Notes under the pieces: model-generated
What the model was told of the DNA's origin: nothing
Seen by the model: only the letters and a program-made list of their open reading frames with translations
The model's database searches: none
Virus record (IMG/VR): IMGVR_UViG_2693429623_000015
DNA length: 8,196 bases
Origin: a virus
Taxonomy: Duplodnaviria > Heunggongvirae > Uroviricota > Caudoviricetes
Direction: 5' to 3' (one strand)
In this document: positions 5,844-7,022 of the stretch, piece by piece
Position numbering within the stretch: the first letter of the stretch is position 1
Layout: the number at the start of each line of letters is the position of its first letter
Position numbers and translations under genes: made by a program

Positions 5844-6656
5844 TTACCTAGTTACCTTTTTTAACTGCCGCTCAGCCCATGCTTCTTCAATATCAAACCG
5901 GGTCACCAGCGCATCATAGAATTTCTTAACTGTTTTTTCCCATGACGCGCGTGTTATCTGGTTTGTCACCTCGCATATAGCATTAAATGCCTCCGTTGAT
6001 GGTAGTCTTTCATAGCCACGACCACCACAACGCTGGCAGTCTCTGATAACAGGCATACCACGTTTTACCGACTCTTCACGATGAATGGCGACACCACGCC
6101 CACGGCAATCCTTACAGGCGGTGGAAACCTCACCCTTTCCGCCACACTCCGGACAGGCAACTTTTACCACCTCCCTGACTTTTTTCCATTCTTCCCAGTA
6201 AGACGGATACACACCTTTCGTACACTTTGCCCATACCGGCGGCTTACCATCCGGATACTGGATCTTGTTTGTAAAAACCTCGCTTTCAATAAATTTTTTT
6301 CCGTGACAGCAGGGGCACTGTTTTTTGCTCGCCGCGCTACGGGCATAATCTTCAAACGCATACGAAGCCATAATACGCATCACTGCCGGTTTTATTTCTG
6401 CCGGGAGTTTTCTTAACGCCGCCACGCGATCACACCGACTGAGTGCATATTCTGTCAGCAATTCTGTTGCCCGCTCTCTGTCATTCATACTAATGCCCAT
6501 TTTCCCAAGGAACGCAGAAACCCCCATCTCAGCCCGATTCTGTGTCATGCCCTGCGCGGCCATCACATCAGTGATACTCAGCGCATCTTTCGACGTTGAG
6601 GCCGATGCATCAGTCANCACCTTTCGTACACTTTGCCCATACCGGCGGCTTACCAT
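5844..6656 (-). CDS. Q-like late antiterminator: second copy of 405-bp repeat unit plus unique C-terminal DnaJ-type zinc-finger region (quuQ-like). Frame is only continuous with the N-terminal segment if the N at 6617 is spurious
   Basis: Track ORF, 270 aa. The C-terminal part contains CPCCHGKKF, CPECGGKG, CKDCRGRG and CQRCGGRG, i.e. CxxCxGxG repeats as in the DnaJ Cys-rich domain. Assignment as Q is by position (after rusA, before pR'/tR'/tRNAs) and recalled similarity to prophage Q-family proteins. The ATG at 6656 is probably not the true start. Confidence 0.6.
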   Translation of the reverse strand: MVSRRYGQSVRKVXTDASASTSKDALSITDVMAAQGMTQNRAEMGVSAFLGKMGISMNDRERATELLTEYALSRCDRVAALRKLPAEIKPAVMRIMASYAFEDYARSAASKKQCPCCHGKKFIESEVFTNKIQYPDGKPPVWAKCTKGVYPSYWEEWKKVREVVKVACPECGGKGEVSTACKDCRGRGVAIHREESVKRGMPVIRDCQRCGGRGYERLPSTEAFNAICEVTNQITRASWEKTVKKFYDALVTRFDIEEAWAERQLKKVTR

Positions 6657-7022
6657 CCGGATACTGGACCTTGTTTGTAAAAACTACGCTTTCAATAAAT
6701 TTTTCCCCATAGCAACAAGGGCACTGCTTTTTACTCGCTGCGCTGCGGGCATAATCCTCAAAAGCGTACGAAGCCATAATGCGCATCACTACCGGTTTTA
6801 TTTCTGCCGGAAGTTTTCTCAACGCCGCCACACGATCGCACCGACTGAGTGCATAATCTGCCAGTAATTCTGTTGCCCGCGCCCTGTCATTCATACTGAT
6901 GCCCATTTTCCCCAGGAACGCAGAAAACCCCATCTCAGCCCGATTCTGTGTCATGCCCTGCGCGGCCATCACATCAGTGATACTCAGCGCATCTTTTGAC
7001 GTTGAGGCCGATGCATCGGTCA
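6212..7022. repeat. Tandem duplication inside the Q gene: two 405-bp units (6212-6616 and 6618-7022), about 92% identical, separated by a single N at 6617
   Basis: Both units start cacctttcgtacactttgcccat and end ggccgatgcatc(a/g)gtca. Unit length is exactly 135 codons. Many substitutions between copies are at silent or conservative positions. Confidence 0.8.

Follow-up and report, generated by a model that had tools for sequence, protein, structure and literature searches.

The Q antiterminator gene in the 8,196-nt stretch of Caudoviricetes DNA analysed here (IMG/VR record IMGVR_UViG_2693429623_000015; hereafter the window) is written with a long internal repeat, which raises the question of whether the duplication belongs to the organism or to the assembly. 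The initial annotation had described two 405-bp units arranged head to tail within Q and split by one ambiguous base. It had offered two readings: a genuine diverged duplication or recombinant Q, or paralogous Q alleles from different prophages concatenated by a scaffolder. Comparison with complete genomes argues for the second. We put at about 95% the probability that the 2 x 405-bp duplication is a scaffolding artefact, a false heterotype duplication of two allelic contigs across a single-N joint. In all likelihood the repeat exists in the file but not in the organism, and the true gene is almost certainly 5844-6211 joined to 6618-7071 (822 bp, 273 aa), an ordinary, widespread and already annotated Qin-type Q antiterminator.

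Tandem Repeats Finder detected a single array in the window, at 6210-7022, with a written period of 406 and not 405 (2.0 copies, 91% matches, 0% indels, score 1386). Direct comparison gave two units of 405 bp apiece, unit 1 at 6212-6616 and unit 2 at 6618-7022, with 33 mismatches between them (91.9% identity) and no gaps, just as had been described at these positions. In an alignment of the two halves with their flanks, similarity began at 6212/6618 and ended at 6616/7022, and the sole character separating the units was the N at 6617. The junction between 6616 and 6618 is written out as ...GATGCATCAGTCA-x-CACCTTTCG.... Its two sides (...GTCA and CACC...) share no homology able to mediate unequal crossing-over, which counts against a genuine duplication.

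Q lies on the minus strand, from an ATG at 7071 to a stop at 5844, and unit 2 is the promoter-proximal copy. The 5' end of the gene occupies 7023-7071 (codons 1-16 and the first base of codon 17, by translation; ATG at 7069-7071), and the 3' part occupies 5844-6211 (codons about 152-273 and the stop), which holds the zinc-finger and PF03589 C-terminal region. Each unit corresponds to gene nt 50-454. The 135-codon module of the initial annotation is right as to length, 405 bp being 135 codons, but the unit ends fall off codon boundaries. Its remarks on the reading frame were borne out: the unit length is a multiple of three, removal of the N yields an uninterrupted 408-codon ORF, and with the N retained the frame is broken into ORFs at 6610-7071 (153 aa) and 5844-6656 (270 aa). 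A length of exactly 135 codons and a 408-codon frame that is open without the N both speak for a genuine duplication, and a multiple of three, as expected of a selected in-frame duplication, counts against an artefact. The frame broken as written weighs on the other side. Because 25 of the 33 differences between the units lie at third codon positions and just 9 amino-acid changes result, the units would represent two long-separated functional alleles; the pattern fits two old, separately functional alleles, and a recent tandem copy does not fit.

Deletion of either unit gives a product of 273 aa. The reconstructed 273-aa protein scored 179.2 bits with Pfam PF03589 (Antitermination protein Q; cut-off 26.7), with the Antiterm match at residues 178-265, and aligned with the solved lambda Q chains 7ubm_Q (E 1.5e-41) and 4mo1_A (E 3.4e-28). 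By these matches the gene is a Q-lambda-family antiterminator. Pfam found three PF03589 stretches in the fused 408-aa protein versus two in normal Q, a further point in favour of a genuine duplication. The 'DnaJ-type zinc-finger' named in the initial annotation is present as a DnaJ_CXXCXGXG match, but at 30.1 bits it falls just below the Pfam cut-off of 32.7. This sub-threshold match and additional CxxC motifs occur within residues 114-182. Most of the relatives listed (253-277 aa, from several Enterobacteriaceae genera) have this DnaJ-type domain (PF00684) in their precomputed annotation, so the insert is no peculiarity of the window.

The gene is placed in the window between rusA and the lysis-side genes, as in a lambdoid prophage. 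The RusA-family Holliday-junction resolvase gene (7068-7448, minus strand) lies upstream with a 4-bp overlap with the Q start; complete genomes have a 'RusA family crossover junction endodeoxyribonuclease' annotated at the homologous position. The corresponding Q of complete E. coli genomes is an 822-bp gene annotated 'antitermination protein', flanked on one side by rusA and on the other by tRNA-Ile/tRNA-Arg. Beyond these tRNA genes, on the late side, come iraM, a SASA esterase, a holin, ydfR and lysozyme, identified downstream of the window Q through homology to annotated Qin-like prophages. The homologous Q of E. coli KKo009 lies within a typical Qin prophage (cspI, rzpQ, rrrQ, ydfR, essD, rem, hokD, dicC, dicA). 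At 5625-5700 of the window ARAGORN calls a tRNA-Met (anticodon CAT), the counterpart of which in complete genomes is tRNA-Ile according to RefSeq. CAT-anticodon tRNAs can be lysidine-modified tRNA-Ile2 types, and such a tRNA is ordinary for these prophages.

The two units behaved very differently when compared separately with complete E. coli genomes. Reconstruction from 5844-6211 and 6618-7071 gave an 822-bp gene with 100.0% identity over its full length to annotated E. coli antitermination genes (5 of the 8 matches listed were at 100%; 1,172 records reached at least 99%). The 3' part, 5844-6211, matches Q of both E. coli KKo009 and FDAARGOS_944 at 100.0% identity. Unit 2 was 100% identical to Q in 25/25 matches listed, with 1,181 records at 99% or above. 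The best match of unit 1 was 99.8%, to the single-copy Q of TUM10008, and 85 records reached at least 99%. For the left flank together with unit 1 (5844-6616), no record in the 5,426 genomes was at or above 99%, the best being 97.8%. Since this compares with 100.0% for the reconstruction containing unit 2, unit 1 appears to be foreign: it would be gene nt 50-454 of a second Q allele, an interloper that creates the false duplication, and unit 2 would be the authentic gene nt 50-454 of the local Q. The usual 3' part of the allele to which unit 1 belongs is only about 89.5% identical to the window. That removal of one unit leaves a 100% match to a common allele is difficult to square with a genuine duplication.

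The junction itself was sought in three collections. A 55-nt query spanning the unit 1/unit 2 junction (6590-6644) had no match in the 5,426 complete E. coli genomes. With the same settings, control 55-nt queries at the outer boundaries, 6185-6239 on the left and 6996-7050 on the right, were present in 2,497 and 2,474 of these genomes, respectively. Searched as a pattern with no spacer base or one, the junction was likewise missing from 185,579 species-representative genomes and from 241 million metagenome records. When window positions 5700-7500 (1,801 bp) were aligned with complete E. coli genomes, 30/30 of the best matches listed spanned 1,395 bp, 406 bp shorter than this query. The last 46 nt of unit 1 ran on into an ordinary Q 5' end, and never into a second unit, in 38/38 independent carriers. 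The bases directly following were GGCCGGGGGATTTTGGGGAG, or GGCCGGGGGGATTTTGGGGA in one case, and in a closed genome the unit 1 allele would be expected to follow a Q 5' end of the GGCCGGGGG type. An exact 46-nt string from unit 1 was found among species-representative genomes in an E. albertii contig only, and on 35 metagenome contigs, each of which passes into the ordinary Q 5' end at the point where the window has the N and unit 2. One reference (L035), with 87-99% identity to the window contigs, also contains one N, but elsewhere.

The duplicated product was absent as well. No full-length relative of a 408-aa duplicated Q was found among 5.8 billion proteins, from which 699 relatives were retrieved; 119 of the 120 best hits to this hypothetical query were 224-277 aa long and covered at most 69% of it. 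The exception, P0001, is a 337-aa singleton on a 1,814-bp contig (GCA_029782595.1, JARCCX010207601.1, 419-1717; reference L040), in which residues about 97-178 are followed by residues 19-273. A natural partial duplication was rejected as an explanation of P0001, given breakpoints unlike those of the window, its occurrence as a singleton on a short contig, a separate 67-aa Q fragment just upstream and a very fragmented assembly. P0001 is probably an independent assembly chimera of Q alleles, and lends no support to a real duplication. With the junction missing from all collections searched, no such protein found and the reconstruction at 100%, the genuine in-frame duplication or recombinant Q put forward in the initial annotation is not supported.

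Five N gaps, that at 6617 among them, interrupt the window (2697-3470, 4157-4236, 4716, 6617 and 7554-7660) and divide it into six pieces: c1 (1-2696), c2 (3471-4156), c3 (4237-4715), c4 (4717-6616), c5 (6618-7553) and c6 (7661-8196). The other four gaps had passed without mention, and their presence changes the interpretation. On complete-genome references, neighbouring contigs overlap at 4/5 gaps, and the overlaps are diverged copies. The overlap between c4 and c5 is exactly the 405-bp unit on references L001, L003, L042, L043 and L044. What had been read as a 'single ambiguous base' at 6617 is the c4/c5 scaffold joint; unit 1 is the tail of c4, the body of which contains the Q 3' part, and unit 2 is the head of c5. 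On L001, c2 maps to 4468-5153, c3 to 5093-5316 and 6736-6856, c4 to 5241-5623 and 6392-7917 with an IS1 occupying the interval between, c5 to 7513-8448 and c6 to 8213-8328. The c2/c3 overlap is 61 bp on L001, c3 and c4 overlap on both L001 and L042, and the c5/c6 overlap is 117 bp on FDAARGOS_944.

A repeat search within the window gave a matching picture, with diverged direct repeats whose edges lie at, or one base off, the gap edges. At the c3/c4 joint, a single N at 4716, the first bases of c4 (4717-4805) repeat 4488-4576 at 87% identity (repeat family D4). Another repeat pairs 4586-4706 with 5435-5555 at 91%. At the 80-N gap between c2 and c3 (4157-4236), the final 43 nt of c2 (4114-4156) recur at 98% at 4358-4400 in c3 (D7, D5). 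At the 107-N gap between c5 and c6 (7554-7660), 7662-7784, which begins one base into c6, is a 90% copy of 7318-7440 (D2). To judge from these copies, the joint at 4716 seems to show the same artefact as that at 6617. Like diverged repeats at other gaps and an N exactly at the junction are further points against a genuine duplication, and they add to the support for concatenation by a scaffolder.

Several features of the individual pieces are worth recording. The arrangement of c3 (4237-4715) resembles that of TUM10008, with iraM followed directly by tRNA-Arg, and that of c4 resembles KKo009/203740. Two tRNA-Arg(tct) genes, at 4599-4675 on c3 and 5448-5524 on c4, lie inside the 91% direct repeat, and at least one of them is probably a false second copy produced by the scaffolding of allelic contigs. 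Part of rusA is duplicated across the gap at 7554-7660 (7662-7784 versus 7318-7440). The rusA part of c5 is only 92-94% identical to the references carrying unit 2. In E. coli FDAARGOS_944 the same Q adjoins a RusA / hypothetical / DnaB-helicase arrangement to which c6 (7661-8196) is 99.8% identical; c1 has 99.6% identity to E. coli 042. On references c1 and c2 are almost adjacent (on L035, window base 2679 corresponds to 2882 and 3471 to 2885), and because they map nearly side by side, the 774-N gap at 2697-3470 is either spurious or hides an insertion. An IS1 (768 bp) inside this gap was considered and dropped, the contig ends at 2696 and 3471 being unlike IS1 ends. An '885-aa' ORF at 825-3482 is inflated by read-through of the Ns; the real gene codes for a carbohydrate esterase of the SASA family.

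A real genome containing both alleles was found in the complete E. coli 203740, whose two 822-bp Q genes belong to separate prophages at a distance of 153 kb. Identity to unit 1 is 99.3% for the first gene and 92.1% for the second; identity to unit 2 is 92.1% and 99.75%, respectively. Each unit thus traces to its own real Q locus, as copy-specific variants match the separate prophage genes of 203740. Over gene nt about 388-651 the two paralogues differ at only one position, and this stretch includes both the allele-switch point of c4 and the start of c5. Short reads cannot phase across so nearly identical a stretch. Multiple copies are widespread in the species: Q was found at up to 4 places per E. 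coli genome, and at 3,079 places in 2,489 genomes overall. The suggestion that paralogous Q alleles were concatenated by a scaffolder is supported by these data, as the units match separate single-copy alleles and both occur in two prophages of 203740.

We propose that the repeat arose as follows. The sample would have held at least two diverged copies of the Q-lambda-family gene, ~8% apart in the N-terminal half outside shared stretches, most likely in a single E. coli genome with two lambdoid (Qin-like) prophages. A short-read assembler unable to phase the shared stretches would have produced ambiguous contigs. One of these, c4, would start in the tRNA region, cross the 3' part of Q and pass into the wrong allele (unit 1); the other, c5, would open with the right allele (unit 2) and continue into the Q 5' end and rusA. 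Contig c4 itself appears chimeric, with a Qin-type 3' part of Q and a tail from another allele. Read pairs would then have put c5 straight behind c4 at a distance implying overlap, and the overlap, being just 92% identical, would have been left unmerged, each contig being written out in full with one N in between. Certain scaffolders may mark an unmerged overlap by exactly one N. The multiple-of-three unit length would be a one-in-three coincidence, set by chance contig ends. One detail counts against the artefact: c4 stops 4 nt past its last allele-specific base instead of running on for a k-mer length. The margins over which the units are identical were also considered as a guide to the k-mer size of the assembler, and gave no conclusion, the values of 51 nt, 4 nt and 34 nt (the last by eye, at the 4716 joint) being inconsistent. 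Overlapping contigs are known to receive negative gap sizes from scaffolders, which also put gaps between them (PMC5368935).

The same duplication could instead stem from over-extension by a gap closer, whereby one real gap was filled from both sides with paralogue reads until one N was left. This we consider unlikely, though worth keeping in view. Single-N remnants and duplicated sequence around gaps are known gap-closer outcomes. The composition of c4, with a left flank that is 100% Qin-type and a tail (unit 1) from another allele, is what extension with paralogous reads would give. Over-extension would however be a sub-variant of the same artefact, indistinguishable from end-to-end scaffolding on present data, and the remaining three overlapping joints carry 1, 80 and 107 Ns, which speaks against it.

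A further alternative, slightly less likely again, keeps the artefact but draws the alleles from two E. coli strains, through mixed culture, contamination or a metagenome bin, linearised by the scaffolder. The pieces of the window do best match at least three prophage backgrounds (c1 at 99.6% to 042, c6 at 99.8% to FDAARGOS_944 and unit 1 at 99.8% to TUM10008), and the 92-94% identity of the c5 rusA part to the references with unit 2 points the same way. Both alleles also occur on many metagenome contigs, and the comparable broken Q, P0001, comes from an assembly with contig accessions above 207,000. Against two strains stand the commonness of several Q copies per E. coli genome and the presence of the required allele pair in the one chromosome of 203740; one polylysogenic genome suffices.

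A genuine tandem duplication, in which illegitimate or unequal recombination of two prophage Q alleles doubled the diverged codons 17-151 and the N is an uncalled base, would accord with the extensive recombination of lambdoid prophages, but is highly improbable in view of the junction, frame and allele comparisons given above.

If scaffolding did join two allelic contigs here, the Q repeat is of interest for quality control alone. Read literally, the scaffold would give a Q that is split or pseudogenised, or else a 408-aa antiterminator that seems 'novel' for its doubled module, along with spurious second copies of tRNA-Arg and of a rusA fragment. In drafts of polylysogenic E. coli, diverged direct repeats bordering N gaps, single Ns above all, should be taken as a sign of allelic contigs placed end to end. 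A genuine duplication, were it true, would mean a 408-aa Q with a doubled N-terminal region, or a freshly inactivated or frameshifted Q. The initial annotation had seen a bearing on late-gene and cargo expression; nothing follows for either, because the real gene is a common, annotated Qin-type Q.

After removal of unit 1 and the N, the gene has 100.0% DNA identity to the Qin-type Q of E. coli (RefSeq WP_000762866.1, 'antitermination protein', 273 aa, PF03589). The window also shares the neighbours of this gene, with rusA upstream and tRNA-Ile/tRNA-Arg, DUF3927, iraM and lysis genes downstream. The sole difference is the 406-bp insertion that splits the window gene as written, and none is left once it is removed. 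Lambda Q (PDB 7ubm, 7ubn, 4mo1) belongs to the same Pfam family, and its homology with the window Q extends over residues 1-113 and 183-273. At 207 aa, lambda Q is shorter than the 273-aa prophage Q, the window Q having ~70 extra residues (114-182). The N-terminal region of lambda Q contacts RNA polymerase and QBE.

The repeat itself finds its closest parallel among assembly errors. The concept of false duplication reportedly goes back to Kelley & Salzberg 2010. A gap between two copies on one scaffold is a primary hallmark of such duplications (PMC9516828). In the false heterotype duplication at scaffold gaps described by Ko et al. (2022, Genome Biol 23:205, PMC9516828), diverged copies lie adjacent with a gap between them, as they do here. 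Copy-specific variants, absence from complete assemblies and a false or broken gene model, all features of that type, are likewise seen in the window. In the vertebrate case, however, the copies are the haplotypes of a diploid, whereas in the window they would be paralogous prophage alleles in a haploid bacterium, possibly from two strains.
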